DNA of 64,000 bases from Staphylococcus phage vB_SurM-PSU4: the sequence record OL436245.1; one strand, written 5' to 3'. The translations under genes and the position numbers were made by a program. Shown here piece after piece: positions 2,782-29,384 of the stretch (its first letter is position 1; every line of letters starts with the position of its first letter). The notes under the pieces are model-generated. The model worked only from the letters and a program-made list of their open reading frames with translations, did no database searches and was not told the origin of the DNA.

Positions 2782-3546
2782 TTAATCATCTAAAAAGAAT
2801 TCGTTATTGTCTTCATAACTTGTGTTAATGAATACAGAATCAAATTCATTTTCATTATTTTTAATGTATAAGTCTTCTAGACGTGATAGACCAATTCTCG
2901 CATATATACTTGCTTGACTATAATGGTCATCACCTTTTCTCTTGATTACTTGATACATTTCTTCTGTCTTGCTATCTTCTTCATCTCTGATGACCACATT
3001 TTGCCAATGTTTAAGAAGTATAGCTTTATCATTATCATTTTCTTGGTAAATTCTTATTCTACCTGTTTTTAAATCTTGGATATAAATTTTGTTCTGCATC
3101 AATTTATCTACAGTAACAATATTTGAATTCTCGTTAAACACAGGTTTAATTTGTCCAGTAGATTTAGGAGATGATTTGTAAGTACAACCAAACACAATAT
3201 CTTCACCGAAGTATTGTTGGAGTCTTAGTAAGTTGTTTCCTGAATCTCCTGTATCTGCTACAATAATATCTGGGTTATACTTAGAAAATTCTACACGTAT
3301 TTTTTCTATATCCGATTCAACCATGTTAGGGTTTTTATTTCGTTTAACATTAAATAACCTAATGAGGTCTATCTTACCATCTTCAGTCATTCCATGAATT
3401 GTACAATAATGAATATTACCCCAATCCACTGATGCTGCGATAAATTTATAATCCCCTCTATTAAACATTTGTTTCTTAGCAATAGGAGATTGGTTGTTGT
3501 AAATATCTTCTTGTAATACTTTCATCTTCTGGTCTTCGTATGGAAA
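2782..3546 (-). CDS. terL: Terminase large subunit, last exon (C-terminal RNaseH-like nuclease domain); exon start approximate
   Basis: The translation carries the typical TerL nuclease motifs (FIAASVDWG, IVADTGDSG). The exon start at ~3546 is inferred by analogy to other intron 3' ends in this window (ggtagtaacg|tttcc). The ORF track lists 2782-3561 from a GTG start. Confidence 0.75.
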   Translation of the reverse strand, partial: FPYEDQKMKVLQEDIYNNQSPIAKKQMFNRGDYKFIAASVDWGNIHYCTIHGMTEDGKIDLIRLFNVKRNKNPNMVESDIEKIRVEFSKYNPDIIVADTGDSGNNLLRLQQYFGEDIVFGCTYKSSPKSTGQIKPVFNENSNIVTVDKLMQNKIYIQDLKTGRIRIYQENDNDKAILLKHWQNVVIRDEEDSKTEEMYQVIKRKGDDHYSQASIYARIGLSRLEDLYIKNNENEFDSVFINTSYEDNNEFFLDD

Positions 3547-4118
3547 CGTTACTACCGTCACTTTCGTGATATTTATATACGGACTAGACTATATCATATT
3601 CCTTATTTTTGACTAAGGAATCTCTACTTTACAGGTCGTTAACCTTCTCTTATAGTTCTACCTTACCTCATTTAGTAAGTTACCTATAAACTTAGTCGTT
3701 AGGCATTTATCTACTTTGTAGAATTTAGCAATTGATTGCCCTCATCTTTACATGTTAGGGGTTTCCAATTTTAGTAGAGTTATTCGATATACATTACTGT
3801 ATAAAGGGGCTATCCCGCTAACCCAGCGTGTAGTTGTAGAACAATTGAGTTGATTCAGTATTCATTTCTTTTTCTTTTAATTCACTAGCTGAAATCCAAC
3901 ATTTTTTTGTTACGATTGAGTTCGTTATTCTCAACCTTCTATATATCGCTATATAAGTTCAGACTATATCTTTACCTTATCAAATGAGACTTAGGTATCC
4001 TCTGTTTCGTGCTACTTAGCACTACTAATTAGTCGTTGCACGTTCTCTTATTACAAGAGCTTCGCTCATGATTATCTCTAATGAGAGACTTCCCATGAAT
4101 TAAAAGGACTTCACTCTA
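3547..4118 (-). mobile_element. ORF-less group I intron region in terL containing two P7-like cores; probably two introns flanking a cryptic ~100-nt micro-exon (~3821-3922)
   Basis: Two copies of the caacgacta...gatatagtct (P7 5'/3') motif pair are present. Between them, an open frame of 35 codons (NSIVTKKCWISASELKEKEMNTESTQLFYNYTLG) begins exactly at the predicted intron end. The same arrangement is seen in the tail-tube gene. Confidence 0.5.
3821..3922 (-). CDS. terL: Candidate terL micro-exon (cryptic, <60 aa, not in ORF track)
   Basis: The frame is open only in the exon-compatible phase. It is bounded by a ...gagaataacg intron-3'-like end and a gcccctttatacag intron-5'-like sequence. Inference only. 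Confidence 0.35.
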
Positions 4119-4499
4119 TACATTTCTATATAGAGGGGCTTGGTTAACCGCATTTAGCTGTGAAATAAAATAACCTCTTGTTCCTTTTCCACCTTTAGTT
4201 CTTTCAGGATACTTACAGTGCCATTCTCCGTTATACCATCTATCTAGAAGTTTACCACATTTTTGACAAACAAATTGGTAACTTCCTTCTTGCACTGTTT
4301 TAGCCATTTCGTCAACACCTTCAGGATTGACTAATAGGATATTTCCACTCTTCTCTAAGTTATCTGGGTCATAGTCTTCATAACTCATTTCATTTAAGTA
4401 ATCACAATGTGTACATCTATGACCATAATACCATTGGTCAGATTGCATATAGAGTTTATGAATTCCCATATTTGGAGTCGTCTTCAACATTACTATTTT
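4119..4499 (-). CDS. terL: Terminase large subunit exon (approximate boundaries)
   Basis: ORF 4116-4502 translates to ...YFISQLNAV..., lying between intron-like sequences. The putative upstream intron ends in ...gagatagtccattttattatg. Confidence 0.6.
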
Positions 4500-5691
4500 C
4501 ATAATAAAATGGACTATCTCATAATCCTTAGTTTTGGTTAAGGATTCTCTGCTTTACGATTTTATAAATAACTAAAAATAACTTCTTTTATTTCTTCATC
4601 TGTATAAGTATAGGGTATTCTTAATAAATCTATATTATTTTTTTCAGCATAATTATTTTTAATATTATCTCTTCTTTGTTGGTCTTTCAATTTTTTAGCC
4701 CCACCAAAAAATTCTACAGGTTTACTATGCTGAATTCCATCATATTCTATAAGAAGGTTTTTACTAGGAATATAAAAATCAAAAGGTAAGTATTTACCTC
4801 TAACTTTTAAATCTTCATATACTTTTTGTATTTCGTAAGTAACTTTATTATCTTTTAGAACTCTCTCTACTTTTCTCTCACCCTTAGATTGTTTACAAAA
4901 AGGACATCTATTACCATTTAAAAAATCTTTAGGTGTAACATAGTAATCAGAACCACAACCTTTATGATGAACAACAACATTTGACCTATTATTAATATAC
5001 TCAGATTTTAAAATAAATTCACCCTCACCTTTTTGTAATACCTCTTTTTTAAATTCCTCAGTAGTTTTTCTTCTATTACCAAAACAATAGGGGCATCTAT
5101 TACCTCTTAAGAAATCTTTAGGTGTCATATCAAAAATATTATCACATTTGAAATGTTTTATTTTTATCTTAGTAGTGCTTCTTCTATACTTTGTTAGTTG
5201 TTGATACTCTTCTTTTGCTATTTCTTTGAATTCTTTTTCAAAAATATAAGGATTTTTTCTTGTTGTGTTACATGAACATCTTCTATTATCATAGAAAAAA
5301 TGATTGGGTGTTGTTGTGAATATCTCACCACAATCAGTATGGAAAAAATCCATATTTACGTTACCTTTTATATATTCTGATTTAACCTTGTATTCTTCCC
5401 CTACTTTATTATACAATCTTTCTTTTATATCTTCTGTAGTTACTTTTTTAGTCATTTAAATCATCCTCTTATTAATATTTTATTCAATTATAACAAATAA
5501 ATATTAATAAGTCAATGATTATTTAAAATCTTTTATCTGATTCTACCTTACTCCTTTTAGTAAGTTACTCAGAAATTTAGTCTCTAGGCATTTACAAGTA
5601 TATAACTTGATTTAGCAATTGATTGTCTACAGCATTATCTGTTTAGAGTTTCCAATTTTAACAGAGTTTTTCAAAACAAATTACTTTGTTA
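4500..5691 (-). mobile_element. Group I intron in terL carrying a homing-endonuclease ORF
   Basis: The intron begins TAACAAAG right after exon ...CGTGGGGCT, giving an in-frame UAA. It has aattggaaac/gcaatcaattgctaaat family motifs and a 3' gagatagtcc core, and the 297-aa ORF sits inside. Confidence 0.65.
4562..5455 (-). CDS. Intron-encoded homing endonuclease, triple CxxC zinc-ribbon N-terminus plus Vsr/DUF559-like PD-(D/E)XK C-terminus
   Basis: The repeat C-x3-F-x3-P-x2-F-L-x-G-N-R-C-P-x-C occurs three times. The C-terminus reads LIEYDGIQH...FFGG...QQRRDNIKNNY...LLRIPYT and is shared with the ORFs at 6065-7048 and 27740-28675. Confidence 0.65.
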   Translation of the reverse strand: MTKKVTTEDIKERLYNKVGEEYKVKSEYIKGNVNMDFFHTDCGEIFTTTPNHFFYDNRRCSCNTTRKNPYIFEKEFKEIAKEEYQQLTKYRRSTTKIKIKHFKCDNIFDMTPKDFLRGNRCPYCFGNRRKTTEEFKKEVLQKGEGEFILKSEYINNRSNVVVHHKGCGSDYYVTPKDFLNGNRCPFCKQSKGERKVERVLKDNKVTYEIQKVYEDLKVRGKYLPFDFYIPSKNLLIEYDGIQHSKPVEFFGGAKKLKDQQRRDNIKNNYAEKNNIDLLRIPYTYTDEEIKEVIFSYL

Positions 5692-5997
5692 AGCCCCACG
5701 ATTTAACATAGGGGTACTCCAACGTCTTATAACCTTGAAAGGTGAACTTGACATTGATTCCATTGCTGATGATTCTGATGATGAAGGTACTCTATCATAT
5801 TCATCCAGTGACAAATAATCAATATCCACACCTTCTAAAGCTTTAGGTGTAGAACTTGTTCTAAAGAACATACTTGAATTTCTTATTTGTTTATATTTTA
5901 ATGAGTCATTATCTTGGTTAATGATGCTTGCAAAATAAGGTTGTTGCAATGTAGGGTTTATCCTACTTTGTACGAATTTCTGCATTTGGTCACTGGT
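5692..5997 (-). CDS. terL: Terminase large subunit exon (contains IDYLSLDEYD Walker-B-like motif); boundaries approximate
   Basis: ORF 5689-6000. A hhhhDE Walker B-like motif is followed by a Ser/Thr-rich segment. The exon is followed directly by an intron starting TAACAAAG. Confidence 0.6.
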
Positions 5998-7318
5998 CAT
6001 TTTTACCCCTAGTTTCCTAGTATTTAAAGGGATTAGACTATATCATAAGAATACATTTATATATTTAAATACGGACTGTATTCTTCTCTGCTTTACTTCC
6101 TAATAAGTATTTATCTTTTAAGTCTTCTAAGTAATTTATAAGTTTTATTCCTGCTATTGTGTAAGGTATTCTAATCATCTCAATGTTATTATCTTTAGCG
6201 TACTTATTTTTTATATCATCTCTTATTTGTTGCTTTTTGAAGGCTTCTAAACCTCCAAAATATTCTATAGGTTCATAATGTTGTTTCCCATCATATTCAA
6301 TAAAAAGCCCATTCTCACCATAATCAGGTATATAAAAATCAAACTTTAAAATGTTAATATATCTACAATCCTCAAATGATTTTTGAAACTCATATATTAT
6401 ACCTTCATCTTTTAAAAATCCCGCTATTATATCTTCGCCATTAGAAATACTACTACATTGAGGGCATCCTGTTAACCTTAAAACATGATTAGGTTCAGCT
6501 TTAAAAACACATTTACACTCATTACATTGGAAAGATGTTTTAGTATGAGTATTTACATAATCACCTATCAAACTTATTTTACCTTTGTGAAAATACTCTA
6601 ATTGTTCTTGAACAACATCTATCTTCTTACGTTGAGATTCTTTAACATTTTCTATGATACATTGAGGACATACATTCTTCCTTCTTTTACTTATCATATT
6701 TATAGGTGTATTATAAAAATAAAAATCATGTACATTACATTTTAATTTTATACTTTCCGAATATCCTGTATATTCACCAATAACAGAAATATTATTATTG
6801 TACTTTTTATTTATCTCATCTTTAAACGTATCTGTTGTTTTAATTCTTTTTTGATTATCACAATAATAACATCTACTATTTCCTGTTAGGAAATTATTTG
6901 GTTTTACAGACCATTCATTACCACAAATGTTATGTTTCATAAGTATTTTATCTCTAGTTCTTGTATACTTACCAATAACTGTGTATTCATTACCTACTAA
7001 ATCATATATTTCTCGTTCAAATTCTTCTTGTGTTTTCTTTTTAGACATTCTTATCCCCCTTTCTTATCTTTTTATACTTATTAGGTTTTCTTATACTATT
7101 TTCGTTATCTCCATTCAGATAACTATTAGTAAGTTTAGTCGTTAGACATTTATCCTAACATTACTATATCATATATAAATATAGTTGTCAAGAATTTAGT
7201 ACGGTAGGTTCCCACTATCTGTGTATAGTCAGAGTTAGGGTTTCTTACCAGTATATTGTTTATCTATACATTATTTTACTATGCCCGTTTAACAGAGTTT
7301 TAGTTCCCCACTCTGTTA
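5998..7318 (-). mobile_element. Group I intron in terL carrying a homing-endonuclease ORF
   Basis: The intron starts TAACAGAG directly after the exon codon ...ATGAAA. Its 3' end reads gatatagtctaatccctttaaatactaggaaactaggggtaaaaatg, and the 327-aa ORF sits inside. Confidence 0.65.
6065..7048 (-). CDS. Intron-encoded homing endonuclease (CxxC zinc-ribbon repeats plus Vsr/DUF559-like nuclease motif), paralog of 4562-5455
   Basis: Several CxxC/CPxC zinc-ribbon modules are followed by the C-terminus FIEYDGKQHYEPIEYFGG...QQIRDDIKNKY...MIRIPYT. Confidence 0.65.
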   Translation of the reverse strand: MSKKKTQEEFEREIYDLVGNEYTVIGKYTRTRDKILMKHNICGNEWSVKPNNFLTGNSRCYYCDNQKRIKTTDTFKDEINKKYNNNISVIGEYTGYSESIKLKCNVHDFYFYNTPINMISKRRKNVCPQCIIENVKESQRKKIDVVQEQLEYFHKGKISLIGDYVNTHTKTSFQCNECKCVFKAEPNHVLRLTGCPQCSSISNGEDIIAGFLKDEGIIYEFQKSFEDCRYINILKFDFYIPDYGENGLFIEYDGKQHYEPIEYFGGLEAFKKQQIRDDIKNKYAKDNNIEMIRIPYTIAGIKLINYLEDLKDKYLLGSKAEKNTVRI

Positions 7319-24807: not shown

Positions 24808-26577
24808 ATGGCTGAAAGTGTATTTCCAAGAATCCCTATCACCCGTCCACATACAGAAATAAATGTAGATACGTCAGGTATTGGTGGTTCAGCAAGTTCA
24901 AGTGAGAAGATTCTTTGCTTAATTGGACAAGCTGAAGGTGGGGAACCTAACACAGTATATGAATTACGAAATTATTCACAAGCTGAACAAATTTTCCGTT
25001 CAGGAGAATTAGTAGATGCTATTCACTTAGCATGGACTACAAACCCACAATTTACAGCAGGAACTATTTTAGCAATGCGTATTGAAGATGCAGAACCTGC
25101 AACACTAACTAAAGGTGGATTAACTTTTAAATCTAAAATCTATGGTGTAGACTCTAATGACATTCAAGTTGCTTTAGAAGAAAACACTATCACAGATTCT
25201 TACCGTTTGAAAGTTATCTTTGATAAAGACCGTATTCGTAACACTTACGATAATATTGGTAACATCTTCAAATTAGAGTATACAGGTGAAGGTCAAGGTA
25301 CTTATACAGTTAAACATAATAAAGAAACTGGTGAAGCTACAAACCTAATCTTAAGTGAAGATGGTTCAGAAGTAAGAAATTATGCACTAGGTGAAGGTGT
25401 ATATGAATATACGAATGACATCATTAAAGACGTAAACAACTTACCAAGCTTTAAAGCTACATTGTCACCATTCGGAAATAAAGACTTAGAAACTAAGTAT
25501 TTAGATGAAGCTAAAGATGTAGATATTAAAGTTGAAGATGGGGTTTATGTAACAGCAATCTTCGGAGATATTTTAAAACAAACTAAATATGACCAAGCAA
25601 TATCAATTGAACGTACAGAAGAACAACAAGATTCTCCAAGCGATGTAAGTGTAGAAGCAGGTGAAAGTAGTGCTGAAGTATCAGCAGGAAGTACTGTATC
25701 TGTACAAGACATTGAACCATTTGAATTATCTAACTTACAAGGCGGAACAAATGGAACACCTCCAAGCACTTGGTCAGAAAAATTAGATAAATTTTCACAT
25801 GAAGGTGGATACTACATTGTACCACTAAGTTCTAGACAATCTGTACACGCAGAGGTTGCACACTTTGTAACTTCACGTTCAGATGCAGGAGAACCAATGA
25901 GAGCTATTGTAGGTGCAGGAATTAATGAAGCAAAAGAACAATTAATTGGTCGTGCTTCAGCTCTAGTAAATCCTCGTGTTACACTTGTAGCTAACTCTGG
26001 TACATTTATGATGGATGATGGACGTAGAAACCATGTACCTGCATATATGGTAGCAGCAGCTATCGGTGGTTTAGCAAGTGGACTAGGTATTGGTGAATCA
26101 ATTACATTCAAGAACTTCCGTATTAATTCACTAGACCAAGTTTATGAATCAGCAGACTTAGACCAATTAAACGAAAACGGTGTAGTAACTATCGAATTCG
26201 TTCGTGACAGATTAAACACTCGTTTCCGTATTGTTGATGATGTAACAACATACAATGACACAAGAGACCCTGTTAAATCTGAAATGGCAATTGGTGAAGA
26301 AAACGACTTCTTAAGTTCTGAACTTAAAATCTTACTTGATGATAACTTCATCGGTTCTAGAACAACAGAAACAAGCCCTTCAATCATCAAAGACTTTATT
26401 CAGTCTTATCTTGAACGTAAAAAACGTGACCATGAAATCCAAGATTTCACACCAGAAGACGTACAAGTTATTGTTGAAGGTAAAGAAGCACGAATCTCAA
26501 TGACAGTATTCCCAATCAGAACATTGAAAAAAATTACTGTATCATTGGTTTACAAAGAACAACAATTACAAGCCTAA
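24808..26577 (+). CDS. Tail sheath protein
   Basis: 589 aa. The N-terminus MAESVFPRIPITRPHTEINVDTSGIGGSASSSEKILCLIGQAEGGEPNTVYELRNYSQAEQIFRSGEL and the C-terminus ...ISMTVFPIRTLKKITVSLVYKEQQLQA closely match what I recall of the Twort-like/phage K sheath. Confidence 0.85.
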   Translation: MAESVFPRIPITRPHTEINVDTSGIGGSASSSEKILCLIGQAEGGEPNTVYELRNYSQAEQIFRSGELVDAIHLAWTTNPQFTAGTILAMRIEDAEPATLTKGGLTFKSKIYGVDSNDIQVALEENTITDSYRLKVIFDKDRIRNTYDNIGNIFKLEYTGEGQGTYTVKHNKETGEATNLILSEDGSEVRNYALGEGVYEYTNDIIKDVNNLPSFKATLSPFGNKDLETKYLDEAKDVDIKVEDGVYVTAIFGDILKQTKYDQAISIERTEEQQDSPSDVSVEAGESSAEVSAGSTVSVQDIEPFELSNLQGGTNGTPPSTWSEKLDKFSHEGGYYIVPLSSRQSVHAEVAHFVTSRSDAGEPMRAIVGAGINEAKEQLIGRASALVNPRVTLVANSGTFMMDDGRRNHVPAYMVAAAIGGLASGLGIGESITFKNFRINSLDQVYESADLDQLNENGVVTIEFVRDRLNTRFRIVDDVTTYNDTRDPVKSEMAIGEENDFLSSELKILLDDNFIGSRTTETSPSIIKDFIQSYLERKKRDHEIQDFTPEDVQVIVEGKEARISMTVFPIRTLKKITVSLVYKEQQLQA

Positions 26578-26646: not shown

Positions 26647-26974
26647 ATGGCAAGTGAAGCTAAACAAAGTATTCACACTGGTAATACCGTCTATCTAATG
26701 GTTAAGGGTAAAATTGTAGGCAGAGCTCAATCAGCTTCAGGTACACGTGAATACGGTACTGAGGGCGTATATGAAATTGGTTCTATCATGCCACAAGAAC
26801 ACGTTTACCTTAGATACGAAGGTACAGTGACAATAGAAAGATTACGAATGAAAAAAGAAAACTTTGCAAAATTAGGATATGCTTCTTTAGGTGAAGAAAT
26901 CCTTAAAAAAGATGTTATCGATATTTTAGTTGTAGATAACTTAACTAAGAGTGTAATCATAGCGTATCATGGTT
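26647..26974 (+). CDS. Tail tube protein, exon 1
   Basis: MASEAKQSIHTGNTVYLMVKGKIVGRAQSASG... matches what I recall of the Twort-like tail tube. The unspliced ORF stops at 26985 after only 112 aa, and the exon is predicted to end at ...CATGGTT. Confidence 0.7.
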
Positions 26975-27275
26975 TAACTAAATAGACCCCTTGTACAGTG
27001 ATGTGCATTGAATAATACTTTAAATTGCTAGAACACCGTAAAGCTAACTTAACCACATAGGAATTGGAAACGATAAACTAGAAGGTCAGGAAACTAGAAA
27101 AAATAAGTTAGATGGTATATGGTTAAAACCTAAGTACTAATTAATCGGAAATTAGCATCGAAGCTCCTGTAAAATGGAGAACGTTCAACGACTATAATAA
27201 GTGAGTCTTAGTTACAATAAGATTATGGAATAGTCTAGTCCGTATATAAATATTGCGAAAGCAACGGTAGAATCG
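26975..27275 (+). mobile_element. ORF-less group I intron 1 in tail-tube gene
   Basis: It begins TAACTAAATAGACCCC like the terL introns. It contains gagaacgttcaacgactataa (P7 5') and ggaatagtctagtccgtatataaat (P7 3'), and ends ...ggtagaatcG. Exon 1 + exon 2 then read YHG-C-SANNY in frame. Confidence 0.65.
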
Positions 27276-27352
27276 GTTCAGCGAATAACTATGATGAAGA
27301 GATAAACACGAACGAAATGATAACTGAGAGCATAGAGTTTTCTTATCTTACA
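27276..27352 (+). CDS. Tail tube protein, micro-exon 2 (encodes CSANNYDEEINTNEMITESIEFSYLT)
   Basis: The frame is open only in the phase created by splicing from 26974. The peptide matches my recollection of the phage K tail tube C-terminal region. The exact 3' end is ambiguous within ~3 nt. Confidence 0.6.
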
Positions 27353-27616
27353 GCATTAAATTTCTAGTGCCCTTATACAGTAATGTATATTGAATAAATC
27401 CTCTAATTCAGGGAAACCCTAAACGAAATTAAGACGTAGGCAATCCTGAGCTAAGCCTGTAACATACAGGAAAGTGCAACGACTATCTCTACGGAGAGTA
27501 CGCTCAAGTGAGTGGAAATGGGGATTATCCTATAAAGTATAGGATAGTGATATAGTCTGGACATATATGGAAACATATAGAAGGTTAGGAGTAACGAACC
27601 TAATCGTAACACAATC
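27353..27616 (+). mobile_element. ORF-less group I intron 2 in tail-tube gene (or non-spliced 3' intron relic)
   Basis: gcccttatacagtaatgtatattgaataa...ggaaaccctaa...ggcaatc...gtgcaacgactat...gatatagtctgg is closely similar to the 3' half of terL intron 3. If spliced, the C-terminus becomes ...YLTADKAS*. If not, the protein ends ...YLTALNF* at 27367. Confidence 0.5.
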
Positions 27617-27634
27617 GCAGATAAAGCATCATAA
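27617..27634 (+). CDS. Tail tube protein, putative terminal mini-exon 3 (ADKAS-stop)
   Basis: gca gat aaa gca tca taa lies immediately upstream of a strong terminator. It matches the recalled K-like C-terminus ...SDKARQ. Inference. Confidence 0.4.
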   Translation, partial: ADKAS

Positions 27635-27648
27635 TAATTTAGTATACT

Positions 27649-27688
27649 TAAACCCAACTTTTATTGTTGGGTTTATTTTTTTTTAATT
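27649..27688 (+). terminator. Rho-independent terminator after tail-tube gene
   Basis: aaacccaac-ttttatt-gttgggttt hairpin followed by T11. Confidence 0.7.
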
Positions 27689-27689
27689 T

Positions 27690-27725
27690 GCTTTATCAGA
27701 AGCAGTATGTTATAATATAAATATA
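27690..27725 (+). promoter_or_regulatory. Promoter of the free-standing homing endonuclease gene (TTGCTT ... TGTTATAAT)
   Basis: A -35-like TTGCTT and an extended -10 TGtTATAAT are followed by an AAGGAGA RBS and the ATG at 27740. Confidence 0.5.
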
Positions 27726-27739
27726 AGGAGATGATATAA

Positions 27740-28675
27740 ATGAAACAAACAAACCAATTTACATTTAATAAAAAAGAAAGTCAGAAGATATGGGAAGAAT
27801 GGTGTATCAATCAGGGGTTAAAACCTTTAGTTACATATGAGAAATCTCAACAACCTTTTTATTTTGAATTTACTTCAGGTAAATTTAAAGGATTAGTAGG
27901 TAAAACATATTGGGCTAGTATAAAAAGAGGTTCAATAATGAGATTGAGTTGCTTAACAGAAGAGAGTAAAAATAAATATATTAAAGAATTAGGTAAAAGT
28001 AAAGGAATAGAAATTATAGAAGACTATAAAGGAGGTAGAAAAATAAAGCATAAGTTTATTTCAATAGATGGAAAATACAAAGGGTGTGAGGGACAAGTAA
28101 CCTTAAATGACTTAGAGAATATGAAATCTATAGATAATAGAAGTTTAACAATTAAAGGTAAAAAACAATATTTTGATTATAAAGCGAAACAAAGAGATTG
28201 TACAATACTAGAATATCCAGAAAATTATAATATAAAAACCAATGAAAAACTAATAGTAGAAGATAACAAAGGATTAAAACATGAGATAATAGTCCAAGAC
28301 TTTTTTGAGAAAAACTCTATATTAGAAGTTTCAAATTTTAGTGAAGGAGAAAAAATAGTTAAAGAAATACTTATAGAAAGAGGTATTGATTTTATCAAAG
28401 AGAAAGGATTTAAAAATAGTAAAGGTATAACACAGAGGTTTGACTTTTATATAGAATTAGGAGAAGAATTATTTGTAATAGAGTATAATGGTTCACAACA
28501 TTATAAAAAAGCAACGGGATACTTTAAAGATACATTAGAAAAAACTCAAAAAAGAGATGAGTTGAAAAGAGAATATTGTAAAAGAAATAATATATATCTT
28601 TTGGAAATACCTTATACTATTAAAGATAAAGAAAGTATAGACAAAGAGATAAAAGAATTTTTAGACCTAGATTAA
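27740..28675 (+). CDS. Free-standing homing endonuclease (zinc-ribbon repeats plus Vsr/DUF559-like nuclease motif), paralog of the two terL intron ORFs
   Basis: 311-aa protein with the C-terminus FVIEYNGSQHYKKATGYF...QKRDELKREYC...YLLEIPYT, very similar to the C-termini of 4562-5455 and 6065-7048. It has its own promoter and terminator. Confidence 0.65.
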   Translation: MKQTNQFTFNKKESQKIWEEWCINQGLKPLVTYEKSQQPFYFEFTSGKFKGLVGKTYWASIKRGSIMRLSCLTEESKNKYIKELGKSKGIEIIEDYKGGRKIKHKFISIDGKYKGCEGQVTLNDLENMKSIDNRSLTIKGKKQYFDYKAKQRDCTILEYPENYNIKTNEKLIVEDNKGLKHEIIVQDFFEKNSILEVSNFSEGEKIVKEILIERGIDFIKEKGFKNSKGITQRFDFYIELGEELFVIEYNGSQHYKKATGYFKDTLEKTQKRDELKREYCKRNNIYLLEIPYTIKDKESIDKEIKEFLDLD

Positions 28676-28696
28676 TTTCTAGGTCTTTTTTTTTAT
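28663..28696 (+). terminator. Rho-independent terminator after endonuclease gene
   Basis: agacctag-attaatttct-aggtct hairpin spanning the stop, followed by T9. Confidence 0.65.
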
Positions 28697-28826: not shown

Positions 28827-29384
28827 ATGGCTGAAGAAAATAAAAAAGATTTATCTGAAATGACCGAAGAAGAGATAGATGAATTAAAATATAAAAAAGA
28901 TACTAAAGAAACAGAAGATAAAACAGAAGATAAAAAAGAAGAATCTAAAGAAGAGGATTCTAAAGAAAAAGAAGAAAAACAAAAACCTGTTTCTGAAATG
29001 ACTAAAGAAGAAATAGAAGAACTAAAATACAAACAAGAACAAGAAAAACAAAAAGTATTGGATAAAGTTATTAGGGGATATAATGATACGTTCATTAAAC
29101 ATTATGACTTTAGAGAATTAGGTTTAACATTCACAATTAAATTACACTTACCTAATATGATTGAACAAGGTCAAATTAATGCTCTACGCTCTAAATATCT
29201 TGGAGGTACGGATGTAGACCAACCTGCATATATTTATTATGCTTTTGAAATGTTAGCTACAATTCAAGTTGTAGGTGATGACGTTCCTAAGTATTTCAAG
29301 AATGAAGAAGACGTGTATAACCCTGCTCCATTAATTCAAATGTATAATGATTGGATGGAATTTCAATCAACCTTTCGTTACTAG
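28827..29384 (+). CDS. Tail assembly chaperone (upstream ORF of a frameshift pair)
   Basis: 185-aa acidic protein between the tail tube and tape measure genes. It overlaps the next ORF by 38 nt. Confidence 0.55.
   Translation: MAEENKKDLSEMTEEEIDELKYKKDTKETEDKTEDKKEESKEEDSKEKEEKQKPVSEMTKEEIEELKYKQEQEKQKVLDKVIRGYNDTFIKHYDFRELGLTFTIKLHLPNMIEQGQINALRSKYLGGTDVDQPAYIYYAFEMLATIQVVGDDVPKYFKNEEDVYNPAPLIQMYNDWMEFQSTFRY

Follow-up and report, generated by a model that had tools for sequence, protein, structure and literature searches.

Group I introns without open reading frames and a free-standing EDxHD-type nuclease gene in the tail-tube locus of a Twort-like Staphylococcus phage: a candidate for homing in trans

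The tail-tube gene of Staphylococcus phage vB_SurM-PSU4 (record OL436245.1) and the gene that follows it were analysed within a stretch of 64,000 nucleotides (nt), referred to here as the window. The tail-tube gene is interrupted near its 3′ end by two group I introns that lack an open reading frame (ORF), and a cassette just past its stop codon carries a free-standing gene (27740-28675) for a putative homing endonuclease of the EDxHD (Vsr-like) type. It is rather probable that break and repair directed by this nuclease cassette carries the adjacent ORF-less introns along, whether through trans homing or collaborative homing. This reading draws on the anatomy of the locus, on the fold and conserved catalytic residues of the nuclease, on purifying selection, on the co-occurrence of introns and nuclease genes in relatives, and on mosaic tracts among their alleles. 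Relatives were taken from 80 tail-tube loci of Herelleviridae in IMG/VR and five loci from GenBank, of which 66 non-identical loci were counted; individual loci are given L numbers where they must be told apart. The source is a Twort-like Staphylococcus phage of the Baoshanvirus group, with a locus 97.7% identical to that of vB_SsapH-Golestan101-M and 97.6% identical to that of RSM-J51Sa.

Splicing of the tail-tube gene

The splice map (Table 1) was obtained by spliced protein-to-DNA alignment, in which a U before the 5′ splice site and a G at the 3′ end of the intron were required; both introns show this U and G, and their removal restores the frame. Exon 1 is collinear with Kayvirus alleles and with the JDF86 allele, which is intronless there, and its terminal U pairs with a G in the guide sequence of the intron. 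JDF86 fixes where intron 1 begins and ends, its first junction being uninterrupted and the frame continuing exactly across the site. The spliced product of 141 amino acids (aa) ends in ...EFSYLTASDKAS* and is collinear to its last residues with intronless Kayvirus alleles, which end in ...EFSYLTASDKART*, placing the true tail-tube stop at 27632-27634. A naive ORF call ends the gene early (112 aa, 26647-26985), and GenBank records of relatives carry the same truncation, indicating that this tail-tube gene is routinely mis-annotated as a 112-aa protein. By coordinates, skipping of exon 2 would also stay in frame since both introns are of phase 1, yielding a 114-aa protein that lacks 27 residues; exon skipping is reported for the homologous Twort gene (cited in PMC11878797).

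Intron 2 matches the group I model RF00028 with 95.5 bits in a regional Rfam scan, against a gathering score of 50, while intron 1 reaches 33.2 bits (E = 3.8e-6), under that score. An alignment of the intron-1 family (seven sequences, drawn from five phages and from sites 110, 114, 123 and 134) contains compensatory changes in 29 of the 61 predicted pairs, and by our reading of it the guide sequence tracks the paired exon, with GGUU/AGACC at site 110 and CCUU/AGAGG at site 134. On these sequence features both intervening sequences are group I introns and are predicted to be self-splicing, as has been shown for Twort orf142 (cited in PMC11878797). The original prediction described the tail-tube introns as ORF-less, and the ORF list of the window indeed holds no ORF of at least 40 aa on the plus strand within either intron. 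An antisense ORF of 68 aa (27451-27657, minus strand) runs through intron 2; it is composed wholly of intron and terminator sequence and is probably spurious. A whole-window Rfam scan at the gathering threshold returned no match and so missed intron 2; similar misses recurred for L003 and L013, and Rfam negatives from long inputs are unreliable.

Intron 1 is 87% identical to the codon-110 intron of phage SA11 and is absent from JDF86. Orthologues of intron 2 occupy the same site in JDF86, L006, SscM-1 and a Silviavirus (83-97% identity), and also in Twort, where the local match spans 121 nt. Across the family, tail-tube introns of 250-400 nt without trace of an ORF occupy no fewer than eight sites in the range of codons 110 to 137, and a single gene holds as many as four. 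Two alternative intron models from the spliced alignments were rejected: a 4-aa "exon" after the nuclease ORF of L003, where DNA alignment puts exon 3 before the ORF, and a split of the L005 intron in two, which is a single intron of ~307 nt.

Table 1. Features of the tail-tube locus and of the terminase locus in the window
Feature	Position	Strand	Details
Tail sheath gene	24808-26577		upstream of tail-tube locus
Tail-tube exon 1	26647-26974	plus	codons 1-109 and first base of codon 110; spliced alignment
Group I intron 1	26975-27275	plus	301 nt, phase 1, codon 110, terminal G
Tail-tube exon 2	27276-27356	plus	81 nt
Recoded block	27276-27337	plus	cDNA (spliced coding sequence) 329-390; 13-16 silent differences from four close relatives without this nuclease gene
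Group I intron 2	27357-27617	plus	261 nt, phase 1, codon 137, terminal G at 27617
Tail-tube exon 3	27618-27634	plus	17 nt, CA GAT AAA GCA TCA TAA, giving ...SDKAS*
Intrinsic terminator	27649-27685	plus	hairpin 27649-27675 and T-run; first cassette element
Promoter	27688-27716	plus	-35 TTGCTT (27688-27693), 17-nt spacer, extended -10 TGtTATAAT (27708-27716)
Free-standing homing-endonuclease-like gene	27740-28675	plus	311 aa
Resident intrinsic terminator	28663-28696	plus	overlaps last ORF codons
Tail-assembly gene	28827-29384		downstream of tail-tube locus
Terminase large-subunit piece	5689-6000	minus	GpA_ATPase
Terminase large-subunit piece	4116-4502	minus	GpA_ATPase
Terminase large-subunit piece	2782-3561	minus	Terminase_6C
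Paralogous EDxHD-type nuclease ORF	6065-7048	minus	between terminase fragments
Paralogous EDxHD-type nuclease ORF	4562-5455	minus	between terminase fragments

A nuclease cassette past the tail-tube stop

Comparison of the junction with the empty sites of L001, L007 and L009 shows that the cassette starts at ~27650, 15 nt past the tail-tube stop. The site is cleanly empty in JDF86, L007 and L009, and a different nuclease gene occupies the same junction in L006. The predicted ORF proved to be a real gene, opening with ATG behind a ribosome binding site (RBS; AAGGAG, 27725-27730), and its start lies 105 nt past the true stop, in line with the claimed distance of about 100 nt. Hairpins at 27649-27675 and 28663-28686, each followed by a T-run, bear out the proposed flanking terminators, and a terminator scan listed three such sites in the region against 0.6 expected. 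The downstream hairpin is the resident one, which in cassette-less relatives serves as the terminator of the tail-tube gene. The promoter ascribed to the ORF is likewise present and is conserved ahead of the ORF's orthologues in three further phage lineages (L003, L004, L005 and L017, with a remnant in SA11); it was read from the sequence, and a consensus promoter scan missed it because its -35 hexamer matches at three of six positions. The order of terminator, promoter, RBS and ORF is kept in the Sciuriunavirus SscM-1, a Silviavirus and phage JS1. The stem of the cassette terminator (27649-27675) is shared with a hairpin at ~5283-5309 of L006, and the loops of the two are mutually reverse-complementary (CTTTTATTG and CAATAAAAG), such that the hairpin loop appears inverted between the window and L006 cassettes.

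The nuclease ORF is thus free-standing, as had been proposed. Database records of its orthologues read "intron encoded nuclease", which would be expected if intron 2 extended through the ORF to a 3′ splice site further downstream. We regard this arrangement as scarcely credible: exon 3, directly after the terminal G of intron 2, restores the conserved C-terminus, a terminator and a promoter separate the tail-tube gene from the ORF, and the sequence downstream of the ORF consists of a terminator, a promoter and the start of the next gene, with no tail-tube coding sequence. JDF86, moreover, retains intron 2 and exon 3 without the ORF. Given the terminator and promoter before the ORF and the relatives with empty sites, the label in public records is a misnomer.

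The predicted nuclease

The 311-aa product consists of three N-terminal repeats of ~55 aa each (residues 11-63, 74-127 and 138-190) and a C-terminal EDxHD/Vsr-like nuclease domain (~residues 200-308). An AlphaFold2 model with a mean predicted local distance difference test score of 87.9 likewise shows three N-terminal repeats, each a helix plus three strands, and a C-terminal α/β domain, and Foldseek returned weak matches, mostly to nucleases of the restriction-endonuclease fold. PHROGs places the protein with families annotated as intron-encoded or homing endonucleases. Pfam gave a sub-threshold DUF2726 match and nothing else, and neither Pfam nor NCBIfam matched a NUMOD or helix-turn-helix module in residues 1-195. 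A profile of the homologues found a single match in the PDB, 3r3p, at E = 0.079, which is not significant by sequence alone. The alignment pairs E204, D235, N250 and H254 with E170, D196, N208 and H213 of the I-Bth0305I active site, while the correspondence of D273 with D222 follows from order and spacing alone. Among 19 homologues E204, D235, H254 and D273 are invariant, whereas N250 falls at a variable position. The protein thus shows the traits of a Vsr-like nuclease fold, supporting its assignment as an EDxHD homing-endonuclease-type protein that presumably cleaves DNA.

Ratios of nonsynonymous to synonymous substitution rates of 0.09-0.25 show that the nuclease gene is under purifying selection. 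Judged by sequence divergence, it is an old, maintained resident, whose distance from orthologues in other genera is about that seen for the sheath gene; a recent transfer between genera was rejected, the proportion of synonymous differences of ~0.6 being at the level of the sheath gene. Such long constraint at the level of a structural gene, together with apparent vertical descent within the Twortvirinae and a conserved promoter of its own, is what might be expected of a nuclease co-opted for competitor exclusion or DNA processing, with its adjacency to introns incidental. This explanation is distinctly improbable. At this identical site one lineage or domain architecture of the nuclease family is replaced by another, with at least eight of them in all, and the gene is polymorphic for presence and absence among near-identical phages, as is typical of homing genes. 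Furthermore, the exclusion of competitors by a cut in their tail-tube gene would amount mechanistically to homing. The replacement extends to the order of domains, as the catalytic domain is N-terminal in the same-site nucleases of L006 (5378-6643) and L014 (4995-5933) and lies mid-protein in that of Twort (L016, 5365-6696), all three of which have a long C-terminal extension, the reverse of the arrangement in the window protein.

Co-occurrence of introns and nuclease genes

Introns at the surveyed loci were classed by spliced alignment, many with Rfam confirmation, and homologues of this one nuclease family were sought by tblastn. Where introns are present, the nuclease gene accompanies them at 16 loci and is absent from 4; where they are absent, the counts are 6 and 40. 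The comparison of related genomes suggested in the original prediction therefore came out positive, with an odds ratio of 27 (p = 2.6e-7, not corrected for shared ancestry). The introns of L021 and L026 received no Rfam confirmation, and leaving them out gives p = 1.5e-6. Within the clade of Bacillus phages alone, 3 loci have both elements, none has introns only, 2 have the nuclease gene only and 33 have neither (p = 0.001).

The nuclease ORF begins 29-181 nt past the tail-tube stop in every positive locus, and the same placement is seen in the GenBank records of S2G3 and Enterococcus phage 156; in Bacillus phage CM1 a homologue lies elsewhere. The distance to the next conserved gene was tried as a proxy for insertion and is unusable across genera, as extra small genes intervene. 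In L020, a metagenomic Twortvirinae contig, a match to the RAGATH-18 RNA (3889-3973; 55.7 bits, gathering score 44.9) lies ~20 nt before the tail-tube start.

Silent blocks and exchanged tracts

Tail-tube proteins of the Baoshanvirus group are identical over their C-terminal third, yet the window gene carries a sharply bounded block of silent changes in exon 2. Compared with L007, 16 of 62 nt differ in the block and 7 of 364 elsewhere (p = 7e-10); over the four relatives, each compared in turn, the 364 nt of remaining cDNA differ at 7-17 positions (p = 1.6e-5 to 7e-10). The comparison covered the window, Golestan101-M and these four relatives, with the RSM-J51Sa locus left out. Among the group members examined, the window and Golestan101-M are the only ones with both intron 110 and this nuclease gene, and the exon-2 variant occurs in just two database phages, both of which carry this gene.

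Synonymous blocks in the last 50-125 nt of the tail-tube gene recur in nuclease-bearing alleles. Paired with nuclease-less relatives, L027 differs from L029 at 36 of 127 nt at the 3′ end and 2 of 296 nt upstream, L043 from L041 at 20 of 127 and 1 of 296, and L071 from L070 at 25 of 123 and 1 of 300. None of these blocks, nor that of the window, changes an amino acid, and the block of L071 starts at the codon-110 intron site. Whole cassettes are exchanged as well: L014 and L017 are 99% identical over 4 kilobases upstream and 2 kilobases downstream, and between these flanks the segment between ~codon 130 and the nuclease gene's end has been swapped, including the presence or absence of intron 134 and the type of nuclease. 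A third kind of exchange is seen between SA11 and JS1, which are ~79% identical in their flanks and 96% identical over 469 nt; this stretch takes in intron 134, 100% identical in the two, along with a terminator and promoter of the nuclease type. SA11 (L013, 5029-5125; compare JS1, L005, 3296-3398) has no nuclease ORF, and its copy of the promoter is joined to the RBS of the following gene, so that this intron-only phage looks like a deletion derivative. These alignments support the view that introns, tail-tube 3′ end and nuclease gene are inherited as one tract.

An alternative is that introns and nuclease genes are independent selfish elements, each separately colonising a conserved and highly expressed 3′ end, with joint exchange by ordinary recombination. 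Configurations with introns only and with the nuclease gene only both exist. Across genera the introns group by insertion site, and same-site introns are 80-87% identical, compared with ~70% for the sheath gene and 71-75% for the nuclease gene, suggesting a possible transfer history of their own; related introns also occur at different nearby sites (codons 110 and 134; codons 129 and 137 for Twort), with guides adapted to each. We nevertheless consider independent colonisation unlikely, as sharp silent blocks border the nuclease gene in three different clades and genomes 99% identical to each other have swapped entire cassettes, both of which are predicted by break-induced co-conversion and unexpected from uniform recombination.

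Homing model and alternatives

The favoured reading, in which break and repair at the cassette moves the introns, would operate as follows. A cassette of terminator, promoter and ORF, inserted 15 nt past the tail-tube stop, would supply an EDxHD (Vsr-like) homing endonuclease. In a mixed infection the enzyme would break tail-tube alleles that lack the cassette, within the last ~120 base pairs (bp) of the gene or just beyond, and repair of the break from a cassette-bearing genome would copy the nuclease gene together with neighbouring exon sequence and the ORF-less introns. Introns and silent exon recoding would probably shield the carrier genome from cleavage. Unable to move alone, the introns would thus hitch-hike with the nuclease. 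In the spliced coordinates of an allele lacking all of these elements, the intron sites lie 32-113 bp from the insertion point of the cassette, which is comfortably within the range over which phage homing is described to co-convert (PMC2790892).

Several observations weigh against this reading. The co-occurrence test ignores phylogeny and covers a single nuclease family, and within the Twortvirinae alone the association is not significant (p = 0.11). The four intron-only and six nuclease-only configurations indicate that neither element needs the other for its persistence. According to the original prediction, relatives that carry the introns without a nearby endonuclease gene would speak against collaborative homing; taken literally, this is what JDF86, L007/L008, phiSA_BS2 (L009) and SA11 present. 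The window locus is itself a mosaic, not one clean tract, since its intron 2 shares 97% identity with its counterpart in JDF86, which lacks the nuclease gene, and exon 3 is almost identical too. Mosaic tracts could also result from ordinary recombination at a hot spot, and the divergence of the nuclease gene, at about the rate of the sheath gene, gives no sign of recent movement between genera.

What stands of the collaborative homing originally proposed is the arrangement of ORF-less introns beside a free-standing nuclease gene, their co-occurrence and their linked tracts; these fit the looser model of trans homing equally well. In the strict form, the enzyme would cut exactly at an intron insertion site, most likely the codon 134/137 junction ~32-40 bp from the cassette insertion point, and the intron would confer immunity. 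All lineages with a nuclease of the window type (the window, L003, L004, L005, L017 and the SA11 remnant) have an intron at codon 137 or 134, and after splicing the junction in the window reads the same as the unbroken stretch in L007 and L009, which lack the cassette, making the intron the sole difference there. The left edge of the swap between L014 and L017 falls 12 nt upstream of the intron-134 site, and I-Bth0305I cuts beside the insertion site of its own intron (PMC3239194). On the other side, introns at codon 137 also occur with other nuclease lineages, and without a nuclease gene in JDF86; a block edge near an intron is expected from co-conversion wherever the cut falls; and intronless carriers are recoded over 50-125 nt, which does not point to a single defined site. 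We treat the strict form as a possibility that falls well short of being the favoured one. A 6-bp inverted repeat at the codon-137 junction (TTATCT-N9-AGATAA) was considered as a dimer target and dropped, being unconserved in Kayvirus alleles and not improbable by chance in AT-rich DNA.

More tentatively, the last ~30 codons of the tail-tube gene and the 15-nt spacer may form a contest zone across the family, in which at least eight lineages of free-standing EDxHD-type endonucleases replace each other at one landing site, and introns (at least eight sites, up to four per gene) and recoding would accumulate by breaking target sites. If this were so, introns would persist as "armour" against the nucleases of competitors, besides being passengers.

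Related nuclease genes at the terminase locus

The nuclease gene was originally described as the third copy of its kind, in agreement with the two paralogues found on the opposite strand among fragments of the terminase large-subunit gene (Table 1). Their products are 33-39% identical to that of the tail-tube locus in the C-terminal domain, and carry treble-clef zinc-finger/CapR motifs N-terminally, at positions equivalent to the repeats of the latter. Interruption of a lysin gene by these two copies was rejected, as the flanking ORFs are pieces of the terminase large subunit. Within 3543-4073, short stretches are similar to the tail-tube introns, at 78-87% identity; Rfam found no intron core at the terminase fragments (2782-7048). 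The two ORFs may be intron-encoded or may stand free between the pieces of the gene.

Comparison with known systems

The layout of introns with an adjacent nuclease gene is already known in kayviruses, and collaborative and trans homing are established concepts. Kayviruses 812, A3R, 676Z, Fi200W and P4W have a tail-tube gene with two non-coding introns and, next to it, a putative endonuclease gene, and phage K and the 812a mutants have neither the introns nor the nuclease gene (PMC6445280). In Twort, orf142 is the tail-tube gene and contains three introns (cited in PMC11878797); a homologous nuclease ORF of 443 aa (437 aa in the database record) lies 72 nt past it. These loci resemble that of the window in the gene affected, in the several ORF-less group I introns at its 3′ end and in the putative endonuclease gene directly after it. 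They differ in that the window phage, a member of the Baoshanvirus group, carries its introns at codons 110 and 137, and in that its nuclease has 311 aa and N-terminal repeats, compared with a gene of 1404 nt in 812 and the longer ORF of Twort. New here are the exact map of splicing, the assignment of the nuclease to the EDxHD type, the association across the family and the evidence from silent changes and cassette swaps. No paper linking the tail-tube locus to collaborative or trans homing was found in the searchable literature, key reviews of Staphylococcus phage introns being outside its reach.

The persistence and spread of ORF-less group I introns have been explained experimentally in few systems, namely cyanophage psbA, the DNA polymerase gene of T3/T7-like phages and T4 nrdB. 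In culturable, therapeutic Staphylococcus phages the tail-tube locus provides a natural set of test cases, with close relatives that span every combination of two to three introns with and without the nuclease gene, and with silent exon markers suited to the scoring of co-conversion.

Collaborative homing has been described for F-CphI with the psbA intron of cyanophage S-PM2, and for a free-standing endonuclease with the DNA-polymerase intron of T3/T7-like phages (Zeng et al. 2009; Bonocora & Shub 2009). In both systems cutting at the intron insertion site was shown experimentally, whereas the window locus is known from its sequence; both involve one intron, compared with two to four at the tail-tube locus and at least eight sites across relatives. 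F-CphI has an Endo VII-type motif (PMC6083498), unlike the EDxHD domain of the window protein. The prototype of that domain, I-Bth0305I, resides inside a recA intron and has a NUMOD/helix-turn-helix N-terminus (PMC3239194), whereas the window protein is free-standing and has three ~55-aa repeats without a Pfam match. A further likeness is to the T4 nrdB intron, immobile alone, which is mobilised by the adjacent free-standing endonuclease MobE through proximity-dependent co-conversion (Wilson & Edgell 2009, PMC2790892). MobE is an HNH enzyme and the T4 intron retains a defunct endonuclease ORF, in contrast to tail-tube introns with no trace of one; trans homing of the MobE type nonetheless matches the tail-tube tracts, and requires no cleavage at the intron site.

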